Positions 5,362-62,632 of a stretch of DNA of 64,000 bases are shown one piece after another. The stretch is from IMG/VR virus record IMGVR_UViG_3300025659_000005; one strand, given 5' to 3'. This DNA comes from an uncultured virus (IMG/VR IMGVR_UViG_3300025659_000005) (Duplodnaviria > Heunggongvirae > Uroviricota > Caudoviricetes). Made by a program: the position numbers and the translations under genes. The first letter of the stretch is position 1, and every line of letters begins with the position of its first letter. The notes under the pieces are model-generated. The model was not told the DNA's origin and ran no database searches. It saw nothing but the letters and a program-made list of their open reading frames with translations.

Positions 5362-5387
5362 GTCTAAAACGTGGGGTAAGATCTGGA
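5362..5387 (+). repeat. Gene-junction repeat copy
   Basis: GTCTAAAACGTGGGGTAAGATCTGGA immediately after the stop codon of 4828..5361. Confidence 0.85.
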
Positions 5388-5455
5388 TGAATAATTAAAA
5401 AAAGATTTCCCCACACCAACTACTGTAATAGTAGAAGGTGTAGGAAAATTAGTTA

Positions 5456-6307
5456 TTAGTTTTCTAGAGATTTGCCGATAACAGCAACATTGAGGTCTTT
5501 GGTATCTTCAAAGGAATACTCGAACCTCAATAGACCACTGTTAAAATCATGTTGGTTTAGAAATTGCTTCAATCCATCCAATTTCAAGAATACTACAGAT
5601 CGTTTGTTAGCAATCGTAATACTGAAAAATGGAAAAACGGGACTAATATTGTGGATCAGATTATTCAGATCCGTTTTATTGGTGACCCCGCAATAAAGTC
5701 GGGAAAAGTCTGTAACTGTTAAATACAGTACAGCTTTTTCTTTCTCGATTACAGCTAAACCAAAACCATTGACAAAGAAAATCGGAAATACTTTCAAATT
5801 CTTCGTCATAAATTCAATCTTTGTTGTTTGGTTCAAGTTGGTGCCGATGGGCTCAATGGCTTCAATAACCATTCTGTCATCAATACTAATCATCTTATCT
5901 CCATCTTCATCAATTACTTTTGATAGAAAATGAATCCAACCGCTGTCGGCATTTTCTGGGAAAAATTCTGGTGTGAACTTTCCAACACAATCAAAATGGA
6001 TCAGACCGTCTTCGACCAGATATTTTGACATGTTTTCACTGTCTTCGTACATCTTTTCGACTCGGAAGAGCCGATTGTACGGGACAACCATATCCGAATC
6101 AAATTCATCTTCAGACAATCGTTTCCATGGGGAAACAATTGCGCTTAATGTTGAAGAAAATCTTTTTCGGAAAAGAAATTGTTCTTCGTAAACAAGAACT
6201 TGTAAATTGTTCTTGTTTGGTTTTCTTACATACTGCTTTCGTTGATCTTTTTCTGGTTGAAGTTTTGGTTGAGTCTTTTGTTCAGTAGTAGTCTCTACAG
6301 TTTCCAT
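5456..6307 (-). CDS. Hypothetical protein
   Basis: 283-aa ORF with a GGAGG SD and its own copy of the promoter motif. Confidence 0.8.
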   Translation of the reverse strand: METVETTTEQKTQPKLQPEKDQRKQYVRKPNKNNLQVLVYEEQFLFRKRFSSTLSAIVSPWKRLSEDEFDSDMVVPYNRLFRVEKMYEDSENMSKYLVEDGLIHFDCVGKFTPEFFPENADSGWIHFLSKVIDEDGDKMISIDDRMVIEAIEPIGTNLNQTTKIEFMTKNLKVFPIFFVNGFGLAVIEKEKAVLYLTVTDFSRLYCGVTNKTDLNNLIHNISPVFPFFSITIANKRSVVFLKLDGLKQFLNQHDFNSGLLRFEYSFEDTKDLNVAVIGKSLEN

Positions 6308-6374
6308 AATGTCGAACCTCCAAATAAAATAAATAAATAAATAAATAGTAACATCACTATGATGCTATTGTTTA

Positions 6375-6399
6375 TATTATTTCTATATTAAAATGGAGA
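6375..6399 (-). promoter_or_regulatory. Conserved phage promoter-like motif (copy 1 of 7)
   Basis: Minus strand TCTCCATTTTAATATAGAAATAATA upstream of 6307. Confidence 0.7.
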
Positions 6400-14228: not shown

Positions 14229-15193
14229 TTATTCTCCTTCAACTTTTTGACTCTAGCCTCTTCTCTAACTTTACCAAGTAAAGCACCGGATCTATCTAAT
14301 ACTCCATCACAAACAGCCGCAACTATAGATGCGTTATTCTTATAACTCTCAACAAGAATAGACATTTTATCACCATTATCATCAATTGTTGTCTTAGATG
14401 ATTTACTGGCTCTAGCAACGGCTTTATGTAGATGAATACTTTCATCAGATGCTACACTTATTTTAAAATTACTAATATCTTTAAAACTTTCTAATGTTGA
14501 ATATACATTTCTAATAATATCTTCAACAAACAAAGGATTATTATATGCTCTTTCTGTTACTACTTTTTCATCAGGTCTTTTTAGAATACTATATATTTCA
14601 CTACTTCCACAAGTTTCAATAGCATGAATTACATCTTCAATCCACACCCAATCTGTAGTACAATATTCAACATCTATAAAACATTTCTGATTGTGAGCAC
14701 CACCGTCAGAGATCTCTTTAGAGCAAGGACATAAACTAGTTACGATAACAGATGTTCCGTAACGAGTCTTAATGTTACCTTTATTATTCTCACATACGAA
14801 TTTAACTGTGTGATTAATGTATCCTTTTTTTCCTGATGCTGGAGCAGTCTTTTGCATAAAATAAGGAAATGATATTTCTAATCGACACTTATCACTTTCA
14901 CACCTTTCTCGAATAACTTCTGTAATCTTAGAAATAACATCTGAATTCAAAGGTTTGTATGTATATTCATGCATTACTTCCAGAAGTCTTGACATACTAA
15001 TTCCTTTAACTTCCGGAGCAAGATCTGTAAAGATAGACATTGTGGCTATTGTTTGTTGAAATGTTCCGTCTTTTTGCATAACCATTATAGGTAGTTGCAA
15101 ATCAGTAATACCTACATTTTCTAAATATATTTGGTGATTTGATTCTGTATTTTGAATGTCAGGCAAATCAGTTATCACTTTGTTTTTCTCCAA
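14225..15193 (-). CDS. folE2: GTP cyclohydrolase IB (FolE2)
   Basis: LPDIQ...KGISMSR...TSLCPCSKEISDGGAHNQ...LKRPDEKVVTERAYNNPLFVEDIIR...ESIHLH. Confidence 0.95.
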   Translation of the reverse strand: MEKNKVITDLPDIQNTESNHQIYLENVGITDLQLPIMVMQKDGTFQQTIATMSIFTDLAPEVKGISMSRLLEVMHEYTYKPLNSDVISKITEVIRERCESDKCRLEISFPYFMQKTAPASGKKGYINHTVKFVCENNKGNIKTRYGTSVIVTSLCPCSKEISDGGAHNQKCFIDVEYCTTDWVWIEDVIHAIETCGSSEIYSILKRPDEKVVTERAYNNPLFVEDIIRNVYSTLESFKDISNFKISVASDESIHLHKAVARASKSSKTTIDDNGDKMSILVESYKNNASIVAAVCDGVLDRSGALLGKVREEARVKKLKENK

Positions 15194-15479
15194 TTATTTT
15201 ACAATTTGATCAAAATGTTTCTGACGTTTTTTATCCAATGATTCTTTTTGGTTATATAGTGTAGCAAATTCTTTTGTAAACATATCGATTACATGTGTAC
15301 CTTCTCTTGATTCAACAAAAAGGTTTAATGGTTTATAAGTTGCATTAAACGAATTTTTTGTTTTATTAAAATCAACAGGTACGATTAAATCTTTTTTAAG
15401 ATTGATTGGTGTTCCGTTATTTGGTATTTTTGAAAACGAAAGATTCATTTATGATTATTCTCCTTGGTTATTGTTTTAA

Positions 15480-15565
15480 TGGTGCCCGAAGTGGAAGTCG
15501 AATCCACATGGCGAAACGCCAGGAGATTTTAAGTCTCCAGCTTATACCAATTCAGCAATTCGGGC
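15480..15565 (-). tRNA. tRNA-Leu(UAA)
   Basis: GCCCGAA/TTCGGGC acceptor, GGAGA-CTTAAAA-TCTCC anticodon arm, long variable arm, TTCGA T-loop and encoded CCA. Confidence 0.9.
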
Positions 15566-15593
15566 GATTTTATTTTGATTTTAATTATAATAA

Positions 15594-15729
15594 TGGTAGT
15601 GGTGGCCGGGATCACACCGACATTTTCGGTCCTAGAAACCGTGTTCTTGTATCTCCAGGATACTGTTGACTTCGCTTTGGATTTTCACCATCACTCTCTT
15701 TTCGTTTGCCGTCTTTAAACTACACCACA
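15594..15729 (-). ncRNA. tRNA-like element with CUA anticodon and ~70-nt D-loop
   Basis: GTGGTG/CACCAC acceptor followed by TACCA, D stem GTTT/GAAC, CGGT-TTCTAGG-ACCG anticodon arm, T arm GTCGG-TGTGATC-CCGGC. Confidence 0.6.
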
Positions 15730-15739
15730 ATTTTGTTTT

Positions 15740-15875
15740 ACTGGTAGACTGGACGTTACACCAGTTCCCTCGCTTCTCGTTCAACATTTTATGTTAACTT
15801 AGCTACCCACTAGTAAGGTGGAGGTACGCCTTTGATTATTGCGATAATGTGTCTACTTTCCACATCGCTACCAGT
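15740..15875 (-). ncRNA. Structured tRNA-mimic-like RNA, copy A
   Basis: Closing stem ACTGGTAG/CTACCAGT, D-like hairpin ATGTG-GAAAGTAGA-CACAT, T-like hairpin ACTGG-TGTAACGT-CCAGT; same layout as 40160..40390. Confidence 0.6.
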
Positions 15876-15886
15876 TGTTAATTATA

Positions 15887-16564
15887 TTATCGACCTAAAT
15901 TCTGACCTGACAAACTCAAACCGTTATTCAGTGCGAATTTACAAGCATACAAAAGGGCTTCTTTTTGCCAATCAACAAACTCATAACAATTATTTTCAAT
16001 TGTCAAGGTAATACTACCAGATTCATTAGTGACAAATTTTGATGGTTTAAGGTTATTCTGCCAATCAGCATTATTATAATTAATAATCTGTTCCATACAA
16101 AAGATTTCAGGAATATTATTAACTAGTTGAAACATTGCCGTTGGATAAACTGTAGCGTTAATAAGACGATTTACTTTATTCAAACAAATCATCTGACCAA
16201 CAATTGAATCTTGTGACATACTTGCAAGTTCAATTCTTAGATTTCCAAAGTTAACATTATAACTAATAGTTGTAAAATGTACTTCACCATCTAACATAGC
16301 TGCATTATTATACGCTTTTGGATTAACTAACCAAAACATATTTAAGATTTTATATTTATTCTGTTGTTCTCCTCCACCAGAGGCTTGGTTACTGGGAAAA
16401 GAAGGTGTATTACCTTGTTGATTACCTGCACCAACACCAGTAGCACCCACAGGTGTAGCTGTTGTAGCTGGAGCACTTTGAGGTACTGCTGCTGGTTTAC
16501 CGGGTGTACCTGATTGAAAACTACCGAAAGGATCATCATTATTGAACATAGTTGCTGCCTCCAT
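15887..16564 (-). CDS. Hypothetical protein with low-complexity N-terminus
   Basis: 225-aa ORF; the likely start is the second Met, after GGAGG. Confidence 0.75.
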   Translation of the reverse strand: MEAATMFNNDDPFGSFQSGTPGKPAAVPQSAPATTATPVGATGVGAGNQQGNTPSFPSNQASGGGEQQNKYKILNMFWLVNPKAYNNAAMLDGEVHFTTISYNVNFGNLRIELASMSQDSIVGQMICLNKVNRLINATVYPTAMFQLVNNIPEIFCMEQIINYNNADWQNNLKPSKFVTNESGSITLTIENNCYEFVDWQKEALLYACKFALNNGLSLSGQNLGR

Positions 16565-16570
16565 AAAAAA

Positions 16571-16843
16571 TTAATTTAAACTAAGATTAGGAATAATACT
16601 ACCACATCGGTCAAGCATACTTTTATTAACTGCTTCCATCATTTTTTCATCTGTAGCACAAGTTTCACAAAGAGCACAGACAAAAACTCTCATTTCACAA
16701 ACTATTGGTAATTCTGCAGGTATATGAGTAAAATTAAAGATAACAGATGTTTCTTGTTTACCACAACAATAACAAGGTTTTTTAACAGCAGACTCAACAA
16801 TTTCTCCATACTGTTGATTTAGATTTTTTTCGTTTTTGATAAT
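16571..16843 (-). CDS. Cys-rich hypothetical protein (no ATG; possible ATT start)
   Basis: 90 open codons with CYCCG and CALCETC; GGAGG lies 7 nt before ATT. Not in the ORF track. Confidence 0.5.
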   Translation of the reverse strand: MIKNEKNLNQQYGEIVESAVKKPCYCCGKQETSVIFNFTHIPAELPIVCEMRVFVCALCETCATDEKMMEAVNKSMLDRCGSIIPNLSLN

Positions 16844-17107
16844 TTTCTAGCCTCCAGTAACATTGTTACTATTAAATTTCGAAAGATAGTCCTCAGCTAT
16901 TTTTTATTAAGATAATTACATCCACATCTTAATAATTCTAAATAATCACTATCGATTTTTACTGTTGTATTCTTTTTTAGTAAAATTTTATGTTCATCAT
17001 AATCAGGGTATATATCACATATATTTTGCACTCGATATGTTACTCTAAATATATTTCTATTTGTTTTCATGAATGCAAATGTATCTAATATACCACTTTG
17101 CATGATA

Positions 17108-19204
17108 TTATCCTCTAGTTTTATTATTAAATTTCGAAAGATAGTTCTCAGCTACTTGTTGACTGATTTTTAATGTTAATCTTCCTTGTGTTGTAATTGT
17201 TTTAGCCAACCAATTATTACTGTATCTAAACGTAGATTGACCGTATAAACCATAACTAGTATTCATCGCCACTTTAGTAGCTTTTTGACGTGAATCGTAA
17301 AATGAATATTCTTCTACACTTCTATCATATTTATCTCTCTTGTCTTTATACTCCTTTCTCAAATCTTTCATTGATTTTAACCAATTACTGAATAAACTTA
17401 ATTTATATTCTTGTTTGTAAAACAGACAACCTGTTAATGTTAAGATCAAGTTATTTGTTTTCAGATATTCTGATAGACTTTCAGATAATACTTTATTTAT
17501 TTGAATGTTTGACTGATTAATATTTTCAATTACGTATAATGACTTATGATTAATTTCTGCATTTAATAAATAATCATAACAGAAATTATTATATTCAGCG
17601 CTACCGTCATGTATCTCATCTATTAGACTTATTAATGGTATGAAATATTTTTTTAAGAGTATGTATGAGTAGAAATTTGTTGGGTGCAAGATCTCATTGA
17701 TATTATTAACTTTACTTTCAAGGATCTTATTGAATAAGTGAGCAACAGTATAATAATAATGTTGTATAGTATTATTTATATTCTGAGGTTTTATTCTATC
17801 ACTTGTTACGTACTTAACAACAAGTTCAAAGAAGTTTCCAAAGACAGTTTTAATTAGATTGTTTTTACGATCTTTTAGAAATGTATCTATTAGATCAAAT
17901 GCTTTATTTGTGGTTATAGGATCTAAAATTCTTCCATGATAAGTATCAAAGCTGATATTATGTTGTCGAATCATTGATGGGTAAAGACTAGCTGCATCAA
18001 GATCTATAATTAATCCGTCACTACTATCGTAAATATGACCCGGCGAATTTTTCACGTACGCGCCGGGAAATTTACTAGTTGTTTTAATATAAGTTCGAAC
18101 GTCAATATTAGTAACATTCCATTTGATCTTCCGATTGCTTAATGGTTTAGGAATCTTATCAATATCTGTTTTAGTAATTTCCATACTTGTTTCATTATTA
18201 ATTCCAAATCGAATATAGTTCTTTTCTTTCGATAATTCATTATAAACCAAAGTATCAAAGAGAGCAGTTGGTCCTCGAAGAGCCATATCAATTGGAGTTT
18301 TCATCAATCGTCTATATGTGTTGAATTGATCAATTATTTTCATCTTATCATCTAATTTATCAACCAACCAAACATCTATAATATTATAGAAAAGATAATT
18401 CACAGGATCTTGTATGTAAAATGTGTCTAGATTACTTGTGTCCTTTTTATAATCTACTTTACCTAATTTAAGTTCAGCATTACTGATAAAATCCAAACTG
18501 TAACTAGGTTGTTTTCTGCCAAAACCAAGTCCATTATCATCTCTAGGTCTGTACAAGTAACTGAAATCTGCATTAACATATTCAATCAATCTAACTTTAT
18601 GCCTACCACCAAACCCACCACAAGTGATATCACCAAATCTAGACATGATTTTAGAAACAGATTTCTTATCTTTATTATACAAATATAATAATCTGTAGTA
18701 CATGTATGGGAGATCAAATCCATCACTGTTAAATCCACTAATGACTACAGGATCTATTTCATGAATTTTTAACCAAACAGCTTTTAATAACGGAAGATCA
18801 TTAGTGTATGTTGTTAGTTCAACTTCATAATCACCATAACCATCATCTTTTAATTTCTTTTTAAGATATTCTTTAACATCACTATGTTGTTTCCATGTCT
18901 CTACGTTCTTACTTAATAACAGAAAGAAACAGTAGAACTTCTTTTCTTTAGTACTTAATAAGGCGCAAGAGCTAACAGGATGCTCACCGTATTCAAGTCT
19001 ATCGAAATCAAATTTATTATCTGAGTAAACTTCTATATCTAAAAATAATTTTTGTATCTTTTGATTCACTTCGATGTTATCTTTTTTATTCCTCAGATAA
19101 TGTTCTACAGCAAAAAATTGAGTGTAGTCTACATCGAGATTGTAGATCTGATATGGTGAGATTTGTTTTTGATCTAACCCTCTTAGTAATCCATTATAAT
19201 CCAA
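17108..19204 (-). CDS. Family B DNA polymerase, N-terminal subunit (3'-5' exonuclease, motifs A and B)
   Basis: LDIEV, GFNSDGFDLPY, YNIID, DLDAASLYPS and KVAMNTSYGLYG; ends before motif C. Confidence 0.92.
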   Translation of the reverse strand: MDYNGLLRGLDQKQISPYQIYNLDVDYTQFFAVEHYLRNKKDNIEVNQKIQKLFLDIEVYSDNKFDFDRLEYGEHPVSSCALLSTKEKKFYCFFLLLSKNVETWKQHSDVKEYLKKKLKDDGYGDYEVELTTYTNDLPLLKAVWLKIHEIDPVVISGFNSDGFDLPYMYYRLLYLYNKDKKSVSKIMSRFGDITCGGFGGRHKVRLIEYVNADFSYLYRPRDDNGLGFGRKQPSYSLDFISNAELKLGKVDYKKDTSNLDTFYIQDPVNYLFYNIIDVWLVDKLDDKMKIIDQFNTYRRLMKTPIDMALRGPTALFDTLVYNELSKEKNYIRFGINNETSMEITKTDIDKIPKPLSNRKIKWNVTNIDVRTYIKTTSKFPGAYVKNSPGHIYDSSDGLIIDLDAASLYPSMIRQHNISFDTYHGRILDPITTNKAFDLIDTFLKDRKNNLIKTVFGNFFELVVKYVTSDRIKPQNINNTIQHYYYTVAHLFNKILESKVNNINEILHPTNFYSYILLKKYFIPLISLIDEIHDGSAEYNNFCYDYLLNAEINHKSLYVIENINQSNIQINKVLSESLSEYLKTNNLILTLTGCLFYKQEYKLSLFSNWLKSMKDLRKEYKDKRDKYDRSVEEYSFYDSRQKATKVAMNTSYGLYGQSTFRYSNNWLAKTITTQGRLTLKISQQVAENYLSKFNNKTRG

Positions 19205-19277
19205 TTATATTAATACCTCCTATATTTTCTACCCTCCTGTACAATCAAAATAAAAATATAAAAAACCCAATTATATA

Positions 19278-19305
19278 TATTATTTCTATATCAAAATAGA
19301 GAAAA
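19278..19305 (-). promoter_or_regulatory. Conserved promoter-like motif (copy 2)
   Basis: TTTTCTCTATTTTGATATAGAAATAATA upstream of the polymerase gene. Confidence 0.7.
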
Positions 19306-20800
19306 CAATAATTTTAAAAGTAAAATGATCCAGCTCAAAGAACCGGATCTGTTAAAATTTTAGGTTGCTTCTAACCATTTCATAAGTTCTTCAATATTCC
19401 CTTCAAATTTTTTAGAGAGAACCCACCCGAAAGCCATTCCGATATTAATCCCAATCATAATAAAGAATATTTCGTACATTAGATTATCCTATAATCTTTG
19501 TCGCCAGTTTAATCCATCTTCTGTACATTGTATTATTTTGCATCTTTTACAAGTACGATTGATGGAAATTTTCTCTGGAAAAGCTTTTATAAACAATATA
19601 CTCATTCTCCAATATTTCCATTTATGTAACCCAAATATACAAAGATTGTTTATCAGATTTTTATTATCCATACCTGCATTCACCACATACAATTTCATCA
19701 ACATGTGAATTACAAGATTTACAATCTTGTTCTTCTATCGTTCCAGCTCCATTAATTTTATATTTTGATCCGCAAACACGACACTCAGTATATACACTTG
19801 ATGTTATTGTTAATGGTGTACTACATTTCAGACAGGGAGTGTTCATCATAACCTCTTATTTGTAGTTTACAGTTTTATTTAACATATTTTGTAGCTCATA
19901 ATATTTATCAGCATCTGTTTTTAATTGTTTTATTTATCATGTCATATACACCACTATCAAAATTTTCACCATGCATACTGTATGAACCCCAAGCAATAGT
20001 ACCAACATCAGGTCTTAAAATATCTTGAATACTTTCTAGAGTTCTTACAGCACACCTATGTGAAATTTTAGCTCGATAATAAGGCCTATCTCTCATTTTT
20101 CTTAATTCTTTTTTCATTTTATCCTCGGAAACCTGGAGCTCTGCGCCAGGTCACAGTCAAAGGTTTTACCGTTACCTTTTCAGAACTCAACATCATAAAT
20201 GAAATCAGTTACTTCGTCCATCACTCTGGCAGACCCATAGGTGGGGTGATAATCAACAGTTAGTTGCAACGTGGGCCATGTTAAATATTCAAGCATTGCC
20301 TCGATTATCCCAGGCGCTTCCACTTCGGTCACTTTATCTATTTCGTGATCTGTGATTTTATATTTCATCATCCCTCCTCTGTTTGTAGGGGGTAACACCA
20401 CACTGATTCTGTTTTAATTATTTCTATTACTCCCTCCTCGGTGTCTGGTGTGTCGCTGTTATAGTTAATACATAATTGTTCAACACGTTCCTTAAACCAC
20501 TTTTTATATCTGTTGGTATCATTGCTCATCATAGCGGCAGTCCCTTCACATTCAGATATAAATTCTTTATAAAGTTTTTCAAACTCCATATTAATTTTAG
20601 TATCATTTTTAAAACAATTACGATATTCTATGTTTGGTTTCATAGAGTTCCCTCATTTATACCAATCAATACCAACTTGGAAAAATAACCACTCAAATAT
20701 AGTTTCATCTCCCCATCGACATATTCTAGGTTTTGGACGAAAATTTTCCCAACCAAAATATATGTTTATAAATACCATATCAAATCCTTTAATTTTATTT

Positions 20801-44841: not shown

Positions 44842-44867
44842 AATTTAAATCTCCTTTAAAAATCTCT

Positions 44868-46724: not shown

Positions 46725-47212
46725 TATAAAATTTTAGTGCAAACTCTTTGCGAAAATAATTGGAAGACGTGTTAATTCTTACGAAAATTCGTAATTAGAA
46801 CTAAATTCTTCTTCCGATGCTGGAATAGCATTTTGACAGGCTCTTCCAAGTTTCCCACATTCTTTGAATTTCTGACAGATTACACATGAGTATGATGGAT
46901 TCATTCTTTCTAGATCTTTTTCTTGAAGTCCACGATATTTTTGTGAAAGCTTTTTGAATTGATTGTTAAAATCTTCTTCAAATGTTCCCATAATTTTCCT
47001 TTTGTTTTTTAAGTGAATTTTCAACTTGTTGCATAGCCCAATCTAATTTATCTTCAGGTATCATATCTATTACATCGTTTATATCAGCATCTAAATTTTC
47101 ATGCGAATACATACGTTTAAACATTAATATCCAATTTTCTGGTAATTGTACTAATGAATCTTTTAGATAGCTTTTTGCAAAATCTTGAATTTGATTGTTC
47201 ATTTTTACTCCT

Positions 47213-48124: not shown

Positions 48125-50161
48125 AAGTAATCTCTAAGTTAGTAACCCACAATGTTTACATATTCTCCCTTCTTCAAATGATTCACATTTTGAAGTGTCT
48201 TGGCCGTAAAAACTAATGAAATAATTACGATCACATTTAATACCACCTTTATAGTGAGTACATTTTACACAAATAAAAGGATCACCTGGAATATATTTTA
48301 CTGGTTCACATTTTTCATATATCATTCTTCTTCAATCCTATCTTGATTTATTAAACGCATCATAGCCTCTTCATCTTCGTCATCTGTACGTACAACTGTA
48401 AAAACTGGAATTCGATCCCAATTTTCACAAGCAACAGTAGTTTCGAATGTTGAAAGCAATTTGATTTGAGCTTTATCAGTTAAATCATCAAAATATATTT
48501 CGACAGTTTGCATTATACTTCACCATTAAAATCGGCATAAAATACAATTGATCTTTTTAATGCTATATCAAAATTATAAGGATTACCAAAATACTCGATA
48601 TCATCAATATTTTCTCCAATGACAATCATTCCATATTCTTCTGGATCAAGATTTTTTACGAAACTACTAATAGCTTCTATATCTTCATCCATTTCACTCC
48701 AAGTACATGACTCATAAAAAACTGCTTTTATGAATCCATCTTTTGTAAGTTGTTTCCTATCTGGTTCTTCAAGTTTTTCAACAAGTTTAGTAAACTCTTT
48801 TGCATATTCTTCTTTTACAGCGATTGCTACATCAGATCTGTATCCCATTATATATGCCTATTAAAATTTCGAGGGTGACTTTCTAAGTGTCTATCTTTCC
48901 ATTGTTCGTAAAGATAATCACCTCTTTCATCTTCATAATCTTTTTGTGCTTGTATTGCTTCTTCATCTGTTTCAAAACTACAAGGTCTTGGTCCTTGACT
49001 TTTCTTATGACCACATTCTCCAGACCACAGTTCACTTGGACAGCTGCCAGAATAACAAATTTTAATCACCTTCCTTTCTGACGATTTTCATATTATTTTG
49101 TGCCGCTTCCAATAATATACTAGAAGAAGCATCTTCACCAATCCTATCAAATTCTTTGATTTTTCTAGTATCAAATTTATAAACATATGCATGTTCTTTA
49201 GCTTCTGGATGTTTTAATTTCTTTTCAAAGACTTCCATTAAAATAATCGATTGATAATTATTTATTGTGTAATAACAAATATGTTTTTCACTATCAATAT
49301 CTTCTGTTTCTTCATTAAAGATTATCATGTCATATTCCTTTATTCAACCCAGTCTTTAGGTAGAAAGGTTTCTTTACGCCAATATTTCAATTTTCTTGTT
49401 GGAAACAGATCATCAGCTTCTAGATTAATCATACCAGTTGAACTAATTATTATAAATGGTGTTTCATTCTTTTCAAAATAATCAGCAATCAAATAAATAT
49501 CAGATTCTTTAAATGACATTTCTACTATTTGAGACTTACTTATGAATTTTATAATGAGCATAATTTATTATCTCCAAAGCTTACAAGATGGTTCTTTACT
49601 AGCATAACCAATACCACTTATAAGAAATACTGATCCAGGATTAAAATGTATACATTCAATAGAACAATTTTTAAAATTATTTATAGCACACTTGGAAGCT
49701 AACATTTCATTTGTAAGTTGATCTAGTCTTTTTGTTAATTCAATCTTTTGATTTTCAAATTCTTTAGTTTCTTTTTCTCTAGATTTTTGTAATTGATTTT
49801 TAAACCATTTAAATGGATTCATTCAAATCACCTATTGACTTTACCAAGAAGTTTCTCAATTTTAATAAGTAAATCACTATTTTGTTTTAATTGATAATAC
49901 AGATCGTCTGTTAGACTTTCAATTTCGTCAACTAAATGTTTTCTTGAAACTTTGTCATTAACAAATTGAAGTTTTCTCACTCTATTAGTAATCATTCTTT
50001 TTGTACCAACAAAGCTACGATATTTTGTTTGCCAATAAATATCATCATATGAATATCTTGGATATTTATCATAGATATCTGCAATAGTTTTACCTTTTGC
50101 TAACAACTGATTCATTTTAATTAATGTATTAGTTTTTATTTTCATTTTGTCTCCTCCGATA

Positions 50162-50594
50162 CTAGATCTCGCCCCACGTTTTAGATCAACTTTCAAACAC
50201 AACATTATCTTTATCAATAATTACTTTAAGACTAATACAGTCTATTAGATTGGTTTTTAAGTATATAGGTTTTGTTTCAGATACAACGGTTTTAGAATTA
50301 ATTTTAAATTCAACTTCTTCACACAATTTCTCTATTATTGGTTTTATATTTTGTTCCATCTAATTCACCAGATCTTACCGTGACGTTTTAATCCATCACA
50401 ACAATATGTGGAAGATTATCATCTATTTCTGCAAAAATTTCTAATTTAGTTTTATCATTACCAATCAGTGTAATACAATTAATAGATTCATCTTTCTTAA
50501 TTTTTATTCCATGAATTTTAAAAAATTCTTTAAGTTTTTTACTTTTATTCGCTATTTCCATATTTGTCTCCAGATCTTGCCCCACGTTTTAGAC
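50162..50594 (-). repeat. Three gene-junction repeat copies (50162-50186, 50368-50395, 50569-50594) about 200 bp apart
   Basis: TCTAAAACGTGGGGCGAGATCTAG, GATTAAAACGTCACGGTAAGATCTGG and GTCTAAAACGTGGGGCAAGATCTGGAG, each between a stop codon and the next start. Confidence 0.85.
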
Positions 50595-50595
50595 A

Positions 50596-51597
50596 TCATA
50601 ATTGTGCTTTACAACAGGCTTCAATGACCTCATAAAGACAACTAATTAAATGTAGGTATGTGAACTTTTTGTTGTCCATTGTTTCGTAATACCTGACTAC
50701 GATCATTTTGGCTGGTAACAAGTCGATGTTATTAATGATCTCACTGAAAACTGTATCAAAATCAATATCCCAGTTATTATTAAGTAATGTCACAAAGTTA
50801 ACGTAATCTTGAGCTATAATACTATTAGTTGGAAAGTATAAACACTGTTTCTTTAATTTACTGTTATTCATCTTTAAAATACTTTTGGTAATAACTAAGA
50901 ACAAACTAATAATACTTTCTTCAATCTCTGTATTGCCTATAAGATCTGAAAAGACAATCTTTTTATTGTTAGATATATAACTTATTTGTAATTGATTTAA
51001 TATGTCACGCAAACCTTTCTGATAATTATTCTCGACATAAATTCCGAGTTGTTCTTCATCAAAGTCGGCTTCTTCTTCTTTCAAAATCCGATCAATTTGA
51101 TTGAACAGGTTTAATTTATCAAATGAATCTAGATTAAATTTATATGTAAATCGACTAAAAAGTGCTGGATCAAGTTTACGAGGATGATTTGTTGCAGCTA
51201 AGAATACACACGTTTCTACATGTTTTTCCATTAATCCATCTTTCAATGTCACCTGAGCTGCCTTACTCAATTTATCTATTTCTTCAATGTAGACTATGTT
51301 ATGTTTACTCTTATTAGGACTTTTTCCAACCCAATTCTTTAGCTCATCCACTTCAGTTACAGAACGAGTTTTCATACGGAAAAGATCTGACTGTGTTTTT
51401 ATAATATGTCGGATAAGAATCTCTATAAGAGTTGTTTTTCCAAGACCTGGTGCTCCATAGAGTAATAAATTCCCGTCAATTCTTCCAGTTTCTAACCAAC
51501 TTGTAACAAGATTTTTGTGTTGATCATTATTAAACACATAATTCTCTATCGTAGCTGGTTGGTGTTTCTTTATCCAAGCACAATTCTTATCTAACAT
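50596..51597 (-). CDS. Clamp loader AAA+ subunit (gp44/RFC-like)
   Basis: WIKKHQP, LLYGAPGLGKTT, EEIDKLS and ALFSRF. Confidence 0.88.
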   Translation of the reverse strand: MLDKNCAWIKKHQPATIENYVFNNDQHKNLVTSWLETGRIDGNLLLYGAPGLGKTTLIEILIRHIIKTQSDLFRMKTRSVTEVDELKNWVGKSPNKSKHNIVYIEEIDKLSKAAQVTLKDGLMEKHVETCVFLAATNHPRKLDPALFSRFTYKFNLDSFDKLNLFNQIDRILKEEEADFDEEQLGIYVENNYQKGLRDILNQLQISYISNNKKIVFSDLIGNTEIEESIISLFLVITKSILKMNNSKLKKQCLYFPTNSIIAQDYVNFVTLLNNNWDIDFDTVFSEIINNIDLLPAKMIVVRYYETMDNKKFTYLHLISCLYEVIEACCKAQL

Positions 51598-52153
51598 CTT
51601 TTCTCCTATATTTTCTTCCAGTTAAATGTGACCAAGTTCTTCCTGTATTAATATTAGTTATTGATACTCCTGATACTTTAAATTTTTTAGCAATATTATT
51701 GTGTGAAACACCAATATTTAATAACTCTATTATTTCTAAAACCTCATCTTCTATTAATATAGAGTTTGTAATATCACTTCCTTTATTTTGTCGATTTTTA
51801 TTTTTTTGATCTTTTAAATTATCTTGAATAGTTCCTACCCATAAATGTTTAGGATTAACACAAGATGGATTGTCACAACTATGAAGAACTTGTAAACCTT
51901 CTGGAATTGGACCATTAAAACATTCATATATAAATCTATGAGTTCCAAATTGGTCATATTTAATACTAAAACGACCGTAACCAGATCCGTGTCCACTTTT
52001 AGCACCAATCCATTCCATACAAGAATCTAAATCATCAGATCCATCATCAAGTTTCTTTACATTCACTTTTGACCAAAATCGTTCTAGTACATCATTACCA
52101 TATCCCATTTGATTATAGTATGGTTTTGTATTGTCATACATTTTTATCTCCAA
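51587..52153 (-). CDS. Free-standing HNH homing endonuclease
   Basis: RFWSKV, CMEW, HRF, HSCDNPSCVNPKHL and a C-terminal HTH. Confidence 0.9.
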   Translation of the reverse strand: MEIKMYDNTKPYYNQMGYGNDVLERFWSKVNVKKLDDGSDDLDSCMEWIGAKSGHGSGYGRFSIKYDQFGTHRFIYECFNGPIPEGLQVLHSCDNPSCVNPKHLWVGTIQDNLKDQKNKNRQNKGSDITNSILIEDEVLEIIELLNIGVSHNNIAKKFKVSGVSITNINTGRTWSHLTGRKYRRKDVR

Positions 52154-52806
52154 TCTTTTCTCATATTAAATAATCCACATCCTCAACCGGAGGTGGAATT
52201 ATGTTAGAAGATTAACAAGCATTAAATCTAGCTACTCTCCAGTTATAGATAACTGTAAATACATATACTCCTATAAGTATTAGTGTAATACCAATACTTT
52301 CAATCATGTAACACATGGTTATAGCAAATCCAATTAATGTAATTTTATAAAGTATAATTCCAAAAAATCCTAATCTTACATATATGAGATTAACAATTGG
52401 ATTGAACTCACCATCAGTACCATAGTTATTGAATATTATTTTAGTCTGGATTAGATCTATTATATTTAAAACAATCAATATGATTATTAAACTATTTAGA
52501 ATCATTATTATATCCTAACCCTTTAGATTTATGTTTGATACTATTATAAATAAATTCTTTTTCCATCATGTGTGAAAAATATTTGTGTTTGTGTAGGTAT
52601 TTCGGTATATTGTGATTCACATGTTTTGCAATAATTAGTTTTAACTAATTTACATTTTAATACTACACTATCATCTTCATTAACCTGTTCATGACCACAT
52701 TTACAAATTACTCGATATTTGTGTTTAGTAAATTCATTTTTCATTATTCATTGTCTCCATTTAAAAAGCCTCCTGTCTATTTATATTTAAAAATAATGAT
52801 TATTTA

Positions 52807-52834
52807 TATTATTTCTATATAAAAACAGAGAAAA
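52807..52834 (-). promoter_or_regulatory. Conserved promoter-like motif (copy 6)
   Basis: TTTTCTCTGTTTTTATATAGAAATAATA. Confidence 0.7.
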
Positions 52835-52842
52835 TATAAATT

Positions 52843-52866
52843 ACCCGACTGCCGAAGCAGCCGGGT
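52843..52866 (-). terminator. Terminator hairpin
   Basis: ACCCGGCTGC-TTCG-GCAGTCGGGT on the minus strand. Confidence 0.75.
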
Positions 52867-53087
52867 CTTTGTGATGATTTATTCGTAATCATGAATATTT
52901 TTTCTTGAAAACACAAAATCTTCAAAAGCACCATTTGGACTTTCTGGACTATCTGGATTGTCTTCACTTGGATCTTGATTTCTAGCAAAAGATGCCATAA
53001 GATCCTTTTCAGGAGTTAGAGATAAATTAATTACAAAATCCCCAATTCTAATTTCGCTTTCTTCATTTTCTTCAATGTCTAATTCTT

Positions 53088-53831
53088 TCATTGGGCCTCC
53101 TCTAATGATTTATGAATCATATACTTTTTACCATAATGATTCAATTTTTTCTCAACCTTCTCTTTGACTTCTTTCCAGTTTATTGTTTTTTGGTGTTTGT
53201 TATAATTCAATTTACCAACACCATAAAAATCTGTGAATTCATGAGTATTATCGATAACATCTAATGCTTCTTGAAGATCAATAATTGGCTCTAAACTTAA
53301 CCAAGTTTTAATGTTTCTTTTTTTGGCTCTTCTTAGATTTTCAATCCTTTGTTTGGGGGAAGCTGCAAATGGTTCCCATTCTTTTTGTAAATCTTCATTT
53401 AACATAACTAAAGTAATACCGAATTCGTTTTCTTGAACTTGAGACAAAAGATCAAAATCTCTTTGAGCTAAATCTTCTCCTTTTGTAAGTATTCGAACAG
53501 GAAAATCAAACGAATTTAATAATTTAATTGATGTTCGTGTTAGTTTTAGTTCTTCCTCTAGTGGTTGATAAGGATCACTAGTGAATGACATAAGAACTTG
53601 AGATTTTTCGAATTCATCATTCTTTTCAATCAATTCTAAGTCTCTTATTAATCTCGTAATAATATCCTTTTTTGGTTTAATTGTTCCGTTAAAATTTTCT
53701 CTAGTGATTTTACAAACACCAGGGACAAAGCAGTACTTACAACCATGATTACAACCTATATAAAGATTGAGCGCAAGATCTGCATATTCTTTAGCAGAAC
53801 CTTTTGGTTCATATATCACTCTATTTGGCAT
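53088..53831 (-). CDS. Radical SAM protein
   Basis: GCNHGCKYC (CxxxCxxC), TSDPYQ, ILTKG and SLEP. Confidence 0.9.
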   Translation of the reverse strand: MPNRVIYEPKGSAKEYADLALNLYIGCNHGCKYCFVPGVCKITRENFNGTIKPKKDIITRLIRDLELIEKNDEFEKSQVLMSFTSDPYQPLEEELKLTRTSIKLLNSFDFPVRILTKGEDLAQRDFDLLSQVQENEFGITLVMLNEDLQKEWEPFAASPKQRIENLRRAKKRNIKTWLSLEPIIDLQEALDVIDNTHEFTDFYGVGKLNYNKHQKTINWKEVKEKVEKKLNHYGKKYMIHKSLEEAQ

Positions 53832-59290: not shown

Positions 59291-60640
59291 TTAAATATTA
59301 GAACTACAAAAATTACAAATTAGAGCGTAACAATCATTTACGTTATTACTTATTTTCAATTTAATATCTTTTATATTTTTATCATTCTCTTGAATATTAA
59401 CATTATGTTCGATTAATGATTTGATACTTTTGGTTGTACATACGTTTTTAATATCTTCATTAGAGATAGTTTTTTCGACCAACATGAATTGATCTTGATC
59501 TTGATAATAATCTTCAGTCTTAATCTTATAATTTTTAAGAGCAAAGATTTTAATAATTTCATCAATAGATTTTACAGTTGGGTGATTTCTTAATATTTCA
59601 CGAATGATTAAAATAATTTCGTTAGTGAACTTCTTATCGATATGTTTGATACATTCATTAATAAGACTAAATTTAACAATCTCTACATAATACTCATAAC
59701 ACCTGAGTAAGATATCATCAACACCTTCTTGCTTAACAGACCCATCATTTTCACAAATATATATGATAAAATTAATGTTTTTGATTAGGTGTTTCTTATA
59801 TATATATTTATAAAATGTTTGTAGATCTTCTCTTTTAGTTGGTTTAACACTAACATCAATTGTTGCACCAGAATAACATTCACAGTGTAATCTATCGTCA
59901 TCTTTTAAAGATGCAAATGTCGTTTGTGGTACTCTTCCTAAGATTCTTAATTCTTTATTTTTAGAAACACAATTAGGAATAATTGTTAGAGTACCAGAGC
60001 CATTAGTTAAAATCTTTTCTGCTTGAATATCATCTCGTTTAATAGAACAACCGTCTTTAGTTAGATTTGGATATATTATGATTTTATCTAATTCATCTTC
60101 AGTTATCAAATATTTTAATCTTTTTGCTAGATCACTTAATTTGTATCTTGGAATAATTGTTCGGTGTGCAGCTATACCCATATAAATATCACCATCACCA
60201 ATTAATCCTATTGGTATAGGTGATGGTATAAATAAAGGTTCGTTTTCATATTCATATTCATCCCAAGGAACAAGATTAATATATTTAAAACAAAATTCAT
60301 CAACCCATTTTTTTAGTTTAGCTTCAGTATATCTTTCTGCACTAGGGTTAGCATCATCTAATCCAGGTGTTCCAAAATTTCCTTGATTGTCTACAAATCC
60401 TTGTTTATAAAGAGTTATTAGTGCTCCATATGCAGCTAATGTTCCATGTGGATGATAAGTACCAGTAGCATAACCAGTAATCTTTGAACACTTAGTAAAT
60501 TTTTTAGAAGCAATATCATGCATGCTTAGTAATAACCGTCTATAAACAGGTGTCAAACAATCTACAGGATTAGGAATCATTCTAAAACGAGAAATATATT
60601 TGAAATATTCAGTATAAAAAATTGGAATAACTTTTTCCAT
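59291..60640 (-). CDS. Type IIA topoisomerase A subunit
   Basis: DCLTPVYRRLL, YHPHG, QGNFG and AERYTE (catalytic Tyr). Confidence 0.9.
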   Translation of the reverse strand: MEKVIPIFYTEYFKYISRFRMIPNPVDCLTPVYRRLLLSMHDIASKKFTKCSKITGYATGTYHPHGTLAAYGALITLYKQGFVDNQGNFGTPGLDDANPSAERYTEAKLKKWVDEFCFKYINLVPWDEYEYENEPLFIPSPIPIGLIGDGDIYMGIAAHRTIIPRYKLSDLAKRLKYLITEDELDKIIIYPNLTKDGCSIKRDDIQAEKILTNGSGTLTIIPNCVSKNKELRILGRVPQTTFASLKDDDRLHCECYSGATIDVSVKPTKREDLQTFYKYIYKKHLIKNINFIIYICENDGSVKQEGVDDILLRCYEYYVEIVKFSLINECIKHIDKKFTNEIILIIREILRNHPTVKSIDEIIKIFALKNYKIKTEDYYQDQDQFMLVEKTISNEDIKNVCTTKSIKSLIEHNVNIQENDKNIKDIKLKISNNVNDCYALICNFCSSNI

Positions 60641-60825
60641 TAGTCAGAATCCCTCGCTATTTTGGCTAGATCCAACATTTCTTGTTCGAGTATTTTGAAA
60701 TCACCTGGCTCATAAGAATACACTGGAGATCTTTGTTTATCTATAGTATTATTCATACTTATCATCGCACATCTTCTGGTAATCAATGCTTCCAACTTAA
60801 TTTTTATTTCTAGTTCTTTCAATTG

Positions 60826-61656
60826 TTATTCCTCCATAAGTCGTTGTCTTAAAACTATATTTTCCAATTCTTTTACACCACCAAGTTGATCGAATACAGG
60901 AATAAATATATTAAAAAATGAATTAAAATCTGGCAAACTAATTGATATTGTTTTATGTACAAGATTAGCAATACTTAAACTGATTGATTCTCGATTAGGT
61001 TTTCTTATTGTTAAGAATTTATTCATAACATATGACTTATTTAATTTCATATCATCTTCAACAAATCTACACATACTCCTTAGAGTGTCGTATCCTTTCG
61101 TTGAATCATAATCAATTATGTTTTTAATATACTTCTTAAATCTATACAATGTATTAAAATCATTTTTTATGCGTATATTTGGTAGAATTTTATCCGCATA
61201 CAGTTCAAAGAATGTGAATCGATTAATCATTCGATTCTGTGCTTTGATAAATTTATCTGAACCTTCTTCAATTACGTTATAATAATTTGGTCTACCATAA
61301 TTTACACTAGCAGTATGTAGATCCATATTACTATTATATTGATACAGTAAATAAATATCTTTTTGGTCATATGTAAATCGTAAACATGTTTTTAATACAG
61401 CATTATCACTGTTATAATAGAAATTATCATTAGAATCATAAACATCAACTTTGATTGAATATTGTTCACTTGCAAACTCATCATGTTGAACAAGTCGCTG
61501 TTCTTTATTAATTTTTACAAATTGAAAAGTAGTTTCGGTGTAACCAGAATACAGATTTTTGAGTACATATTTATCATTATAAAAATATGTTAGCAAAGAT
61601 AATATTTCATAGTTCTTATGTTTATTATTCTCTAGTGTGATGCTCTTTTGACTCAT
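60826..61656 (-). CDS. Hypothetical protein
   Basis: 276-aa ORF coupled to the primase gene. Confidence 0.7.
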   Translation of the reverse strand: MSQKSITLENNKHKNYEILSLLTYFYNDKYVLKNLYSGYTETTFQFVKINKEQRLVQHDEFASEQYSIKVDVYDSNDNFYYNSDNAVLKTCLRFTYDQKDIYLLYQYNSNMDLHTASVNYGRPNYYNVIEEGSDKFIKAQNRMINRFTFFELYADKILPNIRIKNDFNTLYRFKKYIKNIIDYDSTKGYDTLRSMCRFVEDDMKLNKSYVMNKFLTIRKPNRESISLSIANLVHKTISISLPDFNSFFNIFIPVFDQLGGVKELENIVLRQRLMEE

Positions 61657-62632
61657 ACTTAGTCTCCCAATCTATTTTTACTACTGCTGGAAAATCGGCA
61701 ACATCATTACCGATTAAAGGTTTAAACGCATTAATCCAGATCTTGCCGTTATAAATTTGTATTATTTTCTTTAACATCAATAAAATCTTTCTACTTTTAT
61801 TATAATGATCACTATCGAAAATAATGTTAATTTCCAAATCATCAATTAAATAGTACATAATAATTAAACGTTCTAGGTTGTTGACATAATTTTTACCATT
61901 AATACTGATAAAAATATTGTCTTTGAATAGGTCGTTATATAAATATAAACTGATTACATCAAATGGTCCTTCGCAGATAGTAATTTTGTTAATGTTGTTA
62001 TGGATGTTTTGAAAATAGTATAAGTTGCTTGTGTTCGTATTAACTATGTATCTTTGATTATGTGATACATTGTTATCTGTGTGTCTTAATAAAACGTTTT
62101 CCCCAATATGATTCGTGAATCTACACATCAATATACTATTCTTATATAGTGATGGAGATAGTAGAAATGTTGATGGATCTACGTCTGGTCCTAATCTCTT
62201 ATTAATATAATTTCTATAATTAATGTAGTGATTATAATAATTCTTTTTGAAATTTAGAGTGTATTTTAATAATTCTTTCTTTAAGTGACTAAAACGTGGC
62301 GCGAGATTTGTTTGATTACGCAACCGAAAATAATCTTTAGTAAAGTTAATTTTGATAAAACTTGATATGTATTTTAGAACATCTTGATCATCGAATCCAG
62401 TTTGTAGTAATAGACTTAACAAGGTACCACTACTATTACATCTAAAACAACTAAAAACTGGCATGGTTGTTGATATATACAAGTGTCCGTGATTTAAAGC
62501 TTTCTTTCTTAATGCATCATCACAGAACGGACAATGTATTATTATTTCTCCTTGAGGTATCACACGGAACATGTTCGGAGATATTTGTTTTAGATGTTCT
62601 AGCACCGGTGGAATTTGATTTACATCAAACAT
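61625..62632 (-). CDS. DNA primase (Zn ribbon plus TOPRIM, gp61-like)
   Basis: CPFC...CFRC, ICEGPFD and FDSD. Confidence 0.85.
   Translation of the reverse strand: MFDVNQIPPVLEHLKQISPNMFRVIPQGEIIIHCPFCDDALRKKALNHGHLYISTTMPVFSCFRCNSSGTLLSLLLQTGFDDQDVLKYISSFIKINFTKDYFRLRNQTNLAPRFSHLKKELLKYTLNFKKNYYNHYINYRNYINKRLGPDVDPSTFLLSPSLYKNSILMCRFTNHIGENVLLRHTDNNVSHNQRYIVNTNTSNLYYFQNIHNNINKITICEGPFDVISLYLYNDLFKDNIFISINGKNYVNNLERLIIMYYLIDDLEINIIFDSDHYNKSRKILLMLKKIIQIYNGKIWINAFKPLIGNDVADFPAVVKIDWETKYESKEHHTRE

Follow-up and report, generated by a model that had tools for sequence, protein, structure and literature searches.

Very small genes without an assigned function number in the hundreds in large phages, and the regulation and movement of such genes are known mainly from T4-type coliphages and mycobacteriophages. 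Here we describe a short dispersed repeat that marks the junctions around tiny open reading frames (ORFs) in an abundant uncultured marine phage, IMG/VR record IMGVR_UViG_3300025659_000005. The whole stretch of 64,000 nucleotides that was analysed is called the window. The closest described system appears to be the stoperators of the Cluster A mycobacteriophages L5, Bxb1 and TipsytheTRex. These asymmetric 13-mers occupy promoters and the short gaps between genes, follow the direction of transcription and depend on their orientation for action; the protein that reads them is a monomer with a pair of DNA-binding domains and stops elongation (PMC9283540). The promoter-early stem-loops (PeSLs) of T4-type phages consist of a sigma-70 promoter and a terminator hairpin, and mini-circles have been demonstrated for them (PMC2839356, PMC4122927). 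In the mycobacteriophage LRRHood, 29-bp repeats surround a 1.35-kb segment, with general recombination as the proposed mechanism (PMC3029335).

The limits of the repeat were defined by a column-by-column alignment. Identity was about 1.0 at C-TAAAAC-GT, lower in the centre NGNG-YR, high again at AGATCT and at background level outside. Since the identity changes abruptly at both ends, the conserved unit C-TAAAAC-GT-NGNG-YR-AGATCT is sharp-edged and 21 bp long, shorter than the ~26 bp given in the first-pass annotation, which a model had made from the letters of this DNA. Across backgrounds, 15 of the 21 positions (two blocks of 9 and 6) show no or almost no variation. A match to the core was a condition of the scans, which accounts for part of the invariance among the copies they retrieved; this bias touches neither the sharp edges nor the copies of the window itself, in which both blocks are nearly but not fully invariant. 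The conserved TAAAAC and AGATCT ends around a variable centre had been described correctly, except that the spacing is not constant: it varies by one nucleotide in two of the six full window copies, one being shorter and one longer. The motif is asymmetric and built of two blocks, without inverted arms or self-complementarity, and the palindromes within it are AGATCT, ACGT and sometimes GCGC. Two types of centre, GGGG and CGCG, each recur in different backgrounds, and the centre differs between neighbouring copies. Left-end and right-end variants travel together and are not re-assorted. A GATC-like repeat on the left flank is perfect in only 1 of 14 copies. The motif matches no described element. 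We tentatively regard it as a discrete signal in double-stranded DNA with the blocks CTAAAACGT and AGATCT ~6 bp apart.

With up to three mismatches, the first-pass consensus was found at 5362 (+), 33078 (-) and 50569 (-), and 0 times in 100 shuffles. A profile of the six full copies that had been reported recovers those six by construction (E 1e-7 to 6e-5; the matches at 50162 and 32830 extend to 50185 and 32854), and their positions were confirmed; independently, the same profile finds a copy in the primase gene (62287-62309, +) with an E of 1e-4. The copy at 5362..5387 (+) has the centre GGGGTA and follows the stop codon of ORF 4828-5361; no gene lies behind it, and a bidirectional terminator hairpin follows. 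At 33078..33103 (-, centre CGCGCA), the TAA of the motif ends a 54-codon ORF (..NMD*), and GGAG is the Shine-Dalgarno (SD) site of a 72-codon ORF. That ORF is in turn ended (..YILD*) by the TAA of the copy at 32830..32855 (-), which has a spacer 1 nt shorter and is followed by a 97-codon ORF starting 14 nt past AGATCT. The copy at 50569..50594 (-, centre GGGGCA) stands directly behind the clamp-loader gene 50596-51597, and its GGAG is the SD site of the next ORF. At 50367..50393 (-), where the spacer is 1 nt longer, the TAA ends a 57-codon ORF (..VVMD*). The copy at 50162..50187 (-, centre GGGGCG, end AGATCTAG) lies behind the TGA of ORF 50186-50359 and is followed by a separate GGAGG SD site; a 13-nt core in this copy is flanked by GATCTA left and right.

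All six full copies and a half copy at 23270 occupy gaps between a stop and a start codon and are oriented with the genes, and six of the seven strong copies fall within the ~10% of the window that is non-coding. The TAA of the motif is the upstream stop in three of the six full copies, as had been proposed, and in the remaining three the stop precedes CTAAAAC by 0-3 nt, or the motif TAA by 2-5 nt. The ribosome-binding site is either GGAG at the motif end, which agrees with the first-pass proposal in the 33078 and 50569 copies, or GGAGG just behind the motif. Neighbouring copies are 201, 206 and 248 bp apart, within the 200-250 bp estimated before, and each pair encloses one tiny ORF: 50388..50561 (-, 57 codons from the ATG at 50561), 50186..50359 (-, 57 codons) and 32849..33067 (-, 72 codons). 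These bracketed ORFs belong to no Pfam or PHROG family and are treated here as ORFans. Two of the three were searched against 5.8 billion protein clusters. The 72-codon ORF (ORF72) had relatives at 96% and 89% identity only, and ORF 50186-50359 (ORF57) matched itself (48 contigs) and one 84%-identical protein of 65 residues.

The partial copy that had been reported at 23270 was found at 23270..23291 (-, GCGGCAAGATCTGGGAGG) at a stop-to-start junction. It is present as the right half only (GCGGCAAGATCTGG), with an unrecognisable left half and an E of 0.21 in the profile. The copy reported inside the primase proved to be a degenerate full-length one at 62287..62311 (+), antisense to the primase gene 61625-62632 (-) and in frame, where it codes for TNLAPRFS. 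It is not an insertion, because this peptide is common to the closest primase homologues. The same gene carries a second motif-like stretch, an isolated right-half word in sense at 61738..61746 (-) that codes for NGKIW, a peptide also conserved in the closest homologues. Read on its reverse strand, the motif gives PDL(A/T)PRF(R/S), which may be compared with TNLAPRFS of the primase and with DLTPRFS, encoded by a match inside pheT in a metagenome locus (L003) that was set aside as a chance coding match. A coding remnant was rejected as the origin of the motif, since variation falls on a third codon position at only three of its seven sites and no antisense ORF covers the intergenic copies.

Copies elsewhere were found by exact-core scans of IMG/VR and JGI metagenomes. 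Two hits of the first IMG/VR motif scan were chance matches in GC-rich coding DNA. The one true IMG/VR contig, L009 (viral, 4 kb, 38% GC), has two copies that are identical to window copy 33078 over 23 and 22 nt, and besides these copies it has no similarity to the window. In the JGI metagenomes six loci were matched (L003-L008). L008 is the same phage, with 99.97% identity across window positions 1-6457, and carries the same 5362 copy. L004 and L006 are AT-rich relatives that share a promoter-like repeat with the window (described below), and L006 has three motif copies. L005 and L007 represent one locus of 50-54% GC beside an IS200-type Y1 transposase gene. Its copy is identical to window copy 50569 at 26 of 27 positions, ends a 22-codon ORF (read by eye) and lies within a 113-nt stretch of 35% GC in a contig of 52% GC; it is downstream of the transposase gene, which has GC-rich hairpins of its own, and faces an HU gene. 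The transposase gene (Pfam Y1_Tnp, E 6e-40; L007 110-650, L005 1-110) has a GC-rich hairpin on each side, the two being similar and equally oriented, and adjoins the low-GC island with the motif. No mutual similarity was detected among the flanking ORFs of the different motif backgrounds. The motif word thus recurs in a few unrelated marine contigs besides the uncultured marine phage.

Among 185,579 species-representative bacterial genomes, the strict core gave 0 hits and a looser core 9 single hits, of which 7 lie inside ORFs, at a chance expectation of ~70 (hand estimate). One of the nine, in a Poribacteria genome (L042), is at a stop/start junction, and the hit count is still within the chance estimate. 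Two 39-nt queries against 50,697 phage records returned nothing better than E = 2, and in the literature searched the 11-mers of the motif occurred only as guide-RNA cloning oligos. The whole records of primase relatives at 35-42% identity (L010-L012 and records G001-G003) are without the motif; one match with two mismatches was obtained there, which does not exceed a reversed-pattern control that gave 2. A clamp-loader search in IMG/VR found no relatives. A scan of IMG/VR with the promoter-like repeat gave 56 AT-rich matches; in these, neither the motif (E <= 1) nor the promoter repeat (E <= 0.01) was hit. The motif scan suggested at first pass was therefore positive in the relatives L004 and L006 and in the unrelated L009 and L005/L007, and negative in the primase relatives and the phage records.

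For orientation and placement, 12 independent junction copies were compared, L004 and L006c being counted as one and L005 and L007 as one. Of 14 copies, 13 are intergenic. Nine of the 12 point with the adjacent genes (the window's six, L006a, L006b and L005), and three are inverted (L006c, which is orthologous to the L004 copy, and both L009 copies). The earlier statement that the copies follow the gene direction is therefore valid for the window, where it applies to 7 of 7, and not for the other contigs. At the inverted copies, the upstream gene ends either with the TAG of ..TAGATCT or 11-18 nt ahead of the motif, and the ribosome-binding site of the next gene comes after GTTTTAG. L006a is behind no gene and 18 nt upstream of a promoter-like repeat, and in a contig of run X13 a copy is paired with this repeat at a distance of 14 nt. 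Copies 5362, L006b and L005 precede only a terminator hairpin and no gene. The inverted, promoter-proximal and gene-less copies fit a motif that is read at the DNA level, and do not fit a promoter or an mRNA operator.

These placements bear on the proposal that the repeat is a signal in polycistronic mRNA, either a cleavage site or a translational operator that would repress or uncouple the next cistron, for which RegA and RegB can serve as models. All seven junction copies of the window are in the sense strand and overlap the stop codon and the next SD site. Among the 12 independent copies, however, three are antisense, one is upstream of a promoter and three are before no gene, and the RNA-processing site suggested at first pass is weakened by them. 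No shared RNA or DNA fold was found across nine copies, eight of which had z-scores of -1.7 to +1.9; the z of -2.7 for L006b is due to the terminator hairpin behind the copy. Neither gathering nor E-value thresholds gave an Rfam family for the motif. Enrichment of the right-hand word also extends to the antisense strand of genes. In addition, contigs from RNA libraries cross the copies 50368, 50569 and 32830, a weak point, as these contigs hold no level information and the library may hold DNA. We consider a signal at the RNA level very improbable.

Other identities were rejected. A promoter is ruled out by geometry, since AGATCT is 10-18 nt from the next ATG and leaves no room for one, by the three gene-less copies and by the lack of a sigma-70-like excess (42 vs 45.2 in shuffled sequence). 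A structured RNA or a terminator was dismissed because the nine copies fold differently and match nothing in Rfam; terminators occur only behind three copies and outside the motif. A known RNA family or ribozyme failed likewise for want of an Rfam match. Guide or antisense pairing with the structured stretch 40100-40396 (see below) gave duplex energies within the shuffle range (9 to 181 of 200 shuffles equal), and a translational bypass or start-stop reading was discarded from the sequence alone, as the frames disagree among the copies. A CRISPR repeat, for which spacers of 25-50 bp would be expected, was rejected because the spacing of 201-248 bp is filled by ORFs and no two-copy locus exists in the 185,579 species genomes. 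The word GACTAAAAC resembles what we take to be the end of a Cas13a repeat, and mimicry of a Cas13a or Cas12a repeat was rejected because no CRISPR-like array with the core was found in the same genomes. A REP or REPIN element with a RAYT does not fit a motif that is not palindromic, and a Y1_Tnp gene is present only beside L005/L007, flanked by a different, GC-rich hairpin. A link to the promoter-like repeat was rejected as well, since L005 and L009 carry the motif without that repeat at E < 1.

The right half of the motif was also found as a separate word. The window contains 11 occurrences of GCAAGATCT, where base composition predicts ~0.3 (our own arithmetic), an excess of ~35-fold. Seven isolated words on the plus strand, at 15018, 17686, 22544, 31159, 40496, 41914 and 53773 (15018..53781), are antisense inside minus-strand genes, and six of these read GAT CTT GCN, which is Asp-Leu-Ala in rare codons. 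The DLA peptide itself occurs 12 times in the window proteins against 3.8 expected, with CTT in 7 of the 12 (genome-wide 22%) and GCC in 5 of the 12 (genome-wide 11%). When synonymous codons were shuffled with the amino acids and the codon pool held fixed, none of 500 shuffles reached the counts of AGATCTTGC (7 vs 1.07 expected) or GATCTTGCC (4 vs 0.27 expected). AGATCT was counted 51 times against 26.8 (z 5.5; rank 3 of 3716 hexamers), and GATC had a z of 6.5 (200 shuffles). ACTAGT and TCTAGA are also over-represented in coding DNA relative to synonymous-codon shuffles. The left half showed no enrichment outside the full copies. Strand-specific selection on the coding half-sites was rejected, because 7 antisense against 1 sense is what codon usage predicts (1.07 vs 0.16), and therefore only the excess of the word needs explaining. 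It points to selection on the word at the DNA level, and a codon-pair bias could also produce it.

Starting from what is directly established, namely the anatomy, the placement, the occurrence in both orientations, the spread over backgrounds and the excess of the right-hand word, we tentatively favour an asymmetric, stoperator-like protein-binding site that would also act as a PeSL-like recombination joint for ORFans. The motif is probably read by a sequence-specific protein common to a group of marine phages. The genome being compact, the site takes up all of the space from a stop codon to the following ribosome-binding site, and the bound protein would punctuate operons by hindering or timing the read-through of RNA polymerase into small accessory genes. 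As an identical sequence of 21-26 bp at many junctions of several phages offers a short patch of identity, a side effect might be that single ORFans are gained, lost or swapped by recombination. Among the alternatives given at first pass, the protein-binding site fits best, because the motif is sharp-edged, asymmetric and made of two blocks, occurs in both orientations, is intergenic and also promoter-side, and has one block enriched genome-wide; a binding protein was not recognised in the window. The role as a joint would explain why copies and ORFans alternate in arrays, why patches of identity stand amid unrelated flanks and why the motif is present in a low-GC island of a GC-rich locus. 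The direct-repeat pairs around small ORFans, the L004/L006 gene difference next to a copy and the shortened copy 50162 of a relative (see below) also count for a joint. The appearance of the core in backgrounds without detectable protein or DNA similarity around it supports the favoured reading.

Compared with stoperators, the motif is likewise a short, asymmetric, scattered DNA site that is intergenic, often at a stop/start junction and also promoter-side. The seven of seven co-oriented intergenic copies of the window would agree with stoperator behaviour, and a site of two blocks would suit a two-domain reader. In contrast to the 13-mer stoperators, the motif is 21 bp long with two blocks, is present in 6-7 copies in 64 kb rather than in more than 20 per 50-kb genome, and has three inverted copies in other contigs. 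For the motif phage, no repressor homologue was recognised and no lysogeny genes were seen in the window, and host and lineage are unrelated to Cluster A. A stoperator-type repressor with a helix-turn-helix (HTH) and a Stoperator domain was looked for by a Pfam scan, which recognised none in the window and found Sigma70_r4 as the only HTH; this negative is limited by uncertain coverage of the Stoperator domain in Pfam. With the PeSLs the motif shares the position from the upstream stop to the next SD site, the neighbourhood of small non-essential ORFans, the occurrence in otherwise unrelated sequences and the proximity to indels between relatives. Unlike PeSLs it contains no promoter and no hairpin, and the assembled contigs included no circles.

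Several observations speak against the favoured reading. The protein-family searches covered the 104 ORFs of the window, which is part of the genome only, and the sole helix-turn-helix that Pfam recognised among them is the sigma-70 region 4 in 39497-40066, unlinked to the motif. Since 3 of 12 independent copies are inverted and stoperators are orientation-dependent, the analogy may fail outside the window. The RNA-library contigs cross three copies and so give no sign of a constitutive stop. The block spacing differs by 1 bp in two copies, which sits badly with a rigid reader of two domains. The excess of GATC words might stem from codon-pair bias rather than from binding, and the antisense bias of the half-sites is as codon usage predicts (see above). 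The motif also stands in a bacterial-type locus of 50-54% GC, where a phage regulator is not expected, and no recombination at the motif was directly seen in the assembled contigs. If the motif is indeed read by a protein, it would be a second, independent case of stoperator-type punctuation, in a lytic-type myovirus. The motif can be searched for, and it narrows the question to which protein binds the 21-mer.

The recombination side was considered on its own, because the layout resembles gene cassettes. In integrons, attC sites are imperfect inverted repeats of 57-141 bp that fold as a hairpin, and the cassettes run in the same direction with the site 3' of the ORF. The motif shares with integron cassettes the arrays of one ORF and one site, the site that may give a stop codon, and the promoterless ORFs. 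In the window the site is 3' of the ORF in six of six cases, whereas the L004/L006c and L009 copies are inverted. Unlike attC, the motif is 21 bp long, has, as the first-pass annotation had noted, no hairpin (fold test of nine copies) and is accompanied by no IntI or other tyrosine recombinase among the window ORFs (sets of 53 and 104); unlike integron cassettes, it stands in both orientations relative to genes, in a lytic-type phage. The repeats at mosaic boundaries are also direct repeats of 20-30 bp that flank inserted genes at gene ends, but they are local to one locus, while the motif, whose blocks are conserved around a free centre, is found at three or more loci of one genome and also in genomes unrelated to it.

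Two pairs of relatives allowed a look at gene gain and loss. The 84% relative of ORF57 (P0044, on a 674-bp contig) runs past the window stop and ends ..IRSSIGGK, and RSSIGG is the window translation (frame 0) from AGATCT onward at copy 50162, so that the relative's protein reads through the right end of this copy only. From this one protein tail, the relative seems to lack ~16 nt (CTAAAACGTGGGGCG), the left part of copy 50162, and to have the AGATCT end and the ribosome-binding site directly behind the ORF body. In the second case, L006 has 510 bp more than L004 between a shared HNH gene and a shared copy. The extra genes are a 40-codon ORF and a 138-codon deoxyribosyltransferase-like gene. 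The right end of the indel is 10 nt from the motif, and the other ends are on duplicated 27- and 14-nt junction sequences that are unrelated to it. The 27-nt sequence, made of the HNH gene end and an ATGA overlap, is repeated around the 40-codon ORF (L006 2952-3104), and the 14-nt sequence is repeated at the start and end of the 138-codon gene (3094-3510); L004 (2919-2950) has neither gene. The duplicated junctions suggest that genes were gained or lost with duplication of whatever junction sequence was present, and L004 and L006 are mosaics. Thus gene gain or loss at the repeat, anticipated at first pass, was observed on one side of the indel, which abuts a copy, and not on the other, which has a different repeat.

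A dedicated recombination site of att or integron type, with the ORFans as captured single-gene cassettes flanked by copies, is the main rival of the favoured reading and on this evidence doubtful. Its enzyme would be encoded elsewhere in the genome, or a nearby HNH endonuclease would act together with repair. Copy-ORFan-copy arrays occur twice in the window and again in L006 and L009, where direct copies bracket one to three small genes, and five of six neighbouring pairs are direct repeats, the L006b-L006a pair being inverted. The motif gives the upstream stop in three of the six window copies, in L006b and in L005, as attC can, and the bracketed ORFs are strain-restricted ORFans. The islands of identity amid unrelated DNA, such as the 23 of 23 nt between window and L009, are what a crossover predicts, and both orientations relative to genes are found. 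An HNH gene lies inside the L006 array and another 1 kb from the window's three-copy array, and the L005/L007 copy sits in a 35% GC island of a 52% GC contig beside the Y1 transposase. On the other hand, no integrase, recombinase, resolvase or transposase family was present among the 104 window ORFs, with the genome incomplete, so the recombinase search was negative; nor does the motif have inverted arms or a hairpin. As the centres of neighbouring copies differ, a conservative site-specific exchange would be blocked, and the coupled end variants do not re-assort. Contigs of three DNA runs (X12-X14) that span both window arrays are identical to the window, with no joint or indel at the copies among those listed, although contigs can mask rare variants; the comparison was of covered stretches, with contig depth left aside. 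The other side of the L004/L006 indel is a different junction repeat, and the excess of half-sites inside genes is left without explanation. A link to one HNH family was rejected, as relatives of the L006 HNH were found in 15 viral loci without the motif. The cassette-exchange site of the first-pass annotation thus gains from the recurring layout, the ORFans, the L004/L006 gene difference and P0044, and loses from the missing recombinase, hairpin and joints.

Improbable in our view, though of wider consequence, is a gene-capture system that marine myophages of the virulent type would share with one or more GC-rich loci, bacterial or mobile, built on a hairpin-less 21-bp site with a dedicated enzyme. 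In such a system, single ORFans would be plugged in and out at junctions in either orientation, and the site would provide each arriving gene with a stop codon at one end and a ribosome-binding site at the other. The enzyme would be a recombinase encoded outside the window or an HNH nuclease with repair. This would be an integron-like mechanism outside integrons and lysogeny. If the motif is a crossover site at all, it would provide a handle for tracing gene flow among marine phages.

The duplicated junctions of L006 also bear on a simpler, rather unlikely explanation, in which the repeat is a passive or selfish footprint without function. It would be a junction sequence co-copied in short-homology splicing, or a mini-insertion at AGATCT or GATC. 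The 27- and 14-nt junction repeats around the 40- and 138-codon genes that L004 lacks, which are unrelated to the motif, are an example of such copying, and in LRRHood a 29-bp direct repeat stands around 1.35 kb (PMC3029335). Copy 50162 with GATCTA on both sides of its 13-nt core, and a relative that seems to have the AGATCT side only, would suit an insertion, and a palindromic target would account for both orientations. A sequence without function is expected to decay, yet 15 of the 21 positions are invariant or nearly so, also when the scan bias is allowed for, and the left GATC-like flank is perfect in only 1 of 14 copies. To our knowledge, no mobile element is so small, or lacks both terminal repeats and a hairpin.

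Localised single-strand interruptions with a short bipartite consensus are found in T5-like and phiKMV-like phages, and the motif could by comparison be the target of an enzyme that nicks or cuts at a specific sequence. In favour are its two-part, asymmetric build, its free spacer and the small number of copies per genome, and AGATCT, ACGT and sometimes GCGC provide palindromes. HNH genes are present at 2635-3384 and 51587-52153 and next to the L004/L006 copies. These genes near copies belong to different families, however, and the L006 type occurs in 15 loci that are motif-free. Moreover, the strand of the motif flips with the gene direction in the window and is not fixed to one strand. We therefore hold a nicking site to be quite improbable. 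The probability beyond the five readings, that is the protein-read site, the cassette site, the footprint, the nicking site and the RNA signal, is not assigned to any reading.

A second repeat family was observed in the window. It consists of a terminator hairpin followed by TTCTCnATTTTAATATAGAAATAATAT and stands before minus-strand genes or operons, at 6370-6418, 19272-19312, 32455-32483, 36578-36617, 46692-46731, 52800-52866 and 57679-57723 (all -; repeat positions listed as 6418, 19312, 32480, 36617, 46731, 52834 and 57723). L004 has two copies and L006 four copies in 2.4 kb. This promoter-like repeat is probably the phage's own promoter class and a PeSL-like module. It, and not the motif, is the real transcription punctuation of the phage and corresponds in structure to PeSLs. 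Among the run contigs, those of other phages lose homology at this repeat, and the 'goes back' joints in run contigs fall on it, with short sides.

The window has 29% GC and is ~90% coding. It contains genes for a capsid protein, tail sheath, clamp loader, topoisomerase II subunits, helicases, primase, single-stranded DNA-binding protein and a sigma-like protein. Judged from its genes, the phage is an AT-rich marine myophage, distantly Herelleviridae-like; one helicase is 33-35% identical to helicases of Listeria, Staphylococcus and Bacillus myophages, and at the DNA level the window matched none of the phage records. Of the sampled words from a probed 8-kb stretch, 14 marine DNA runs contain at least half, and 5 marine RNA-library runs contain a quarter to a half.

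Further features of the window were noted. Two ORFs separated by 11 kb, 17108-19204 (-) and 30402-31280 (-), make up a split family B DNA polymerase and cover the phrog_262 profile positions 94-568 and 572-767, respectively, with the C-terminal piece (30402-31280) upstream in the direction of transcription. A group I intron (Rfam RF00028) is located at 271-527 (+), with similar pieces at 2340-2520 and 3429-3503. In 11 kb of contig L008 there are five such introns (5931-6187, 7666-7898, 9471-9708, 9962-10202 and 10266-10506). The intron scores are 94-113 bits, and the introns lie among structural genes; together with a nearby HNH-like ORF (2635-3384), they indicate that the capsid region is probably interrupted several times.

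In the interval between the sigma-like gene and a helicase gene, a GC-rich stretch of ~300 nt (40100-40396, -) with a terminator hairpin at its end folds better than 100 of 100 shuffles (z -2.9) and matches no Rfam family. It lies in a stretch with the second-highest RNA-contig depth of window positions 32001-52000 (26-35, compared with ~70 at 44007-46674) and is a candidate for a new structured RNA. Four further genes encode a GTP cyclohydrolase I of the FolE2 type, a radical SAM protein, a protein resembling DprA (phrog_768) and a 520-residue protein with a uracil-DNA-glycosylase-superfamily domain; their coordinates, given jointly for the set, are 14228-15193, 53091-53831, 22267-22752 and 41736-43295 (all -). 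This set hints at a modified DNA base, for example of the 7-deazaguanine type. ARAGORN called a tRNA-Met(CAT) and a tRNA-Leu(TAA), with the tRNA coordinates 33596-33672 (-) and 15480-15565 (-), and many foreign contigs stack at the tRNA-Met. A 105-nt match to the Rfam tRNA model at 22174-22278 (-) had no ARAGORN call. Finally, paralogous genes, in tandem or near-tandem and 30-45% identical, two ankyrin-repeat proteins among them, are found at 12087-12845/12869-13618, 25200-25862/26598-27266, 27457-27768/27769-28077 and 31277-31528/31582-31965/31965-32231.

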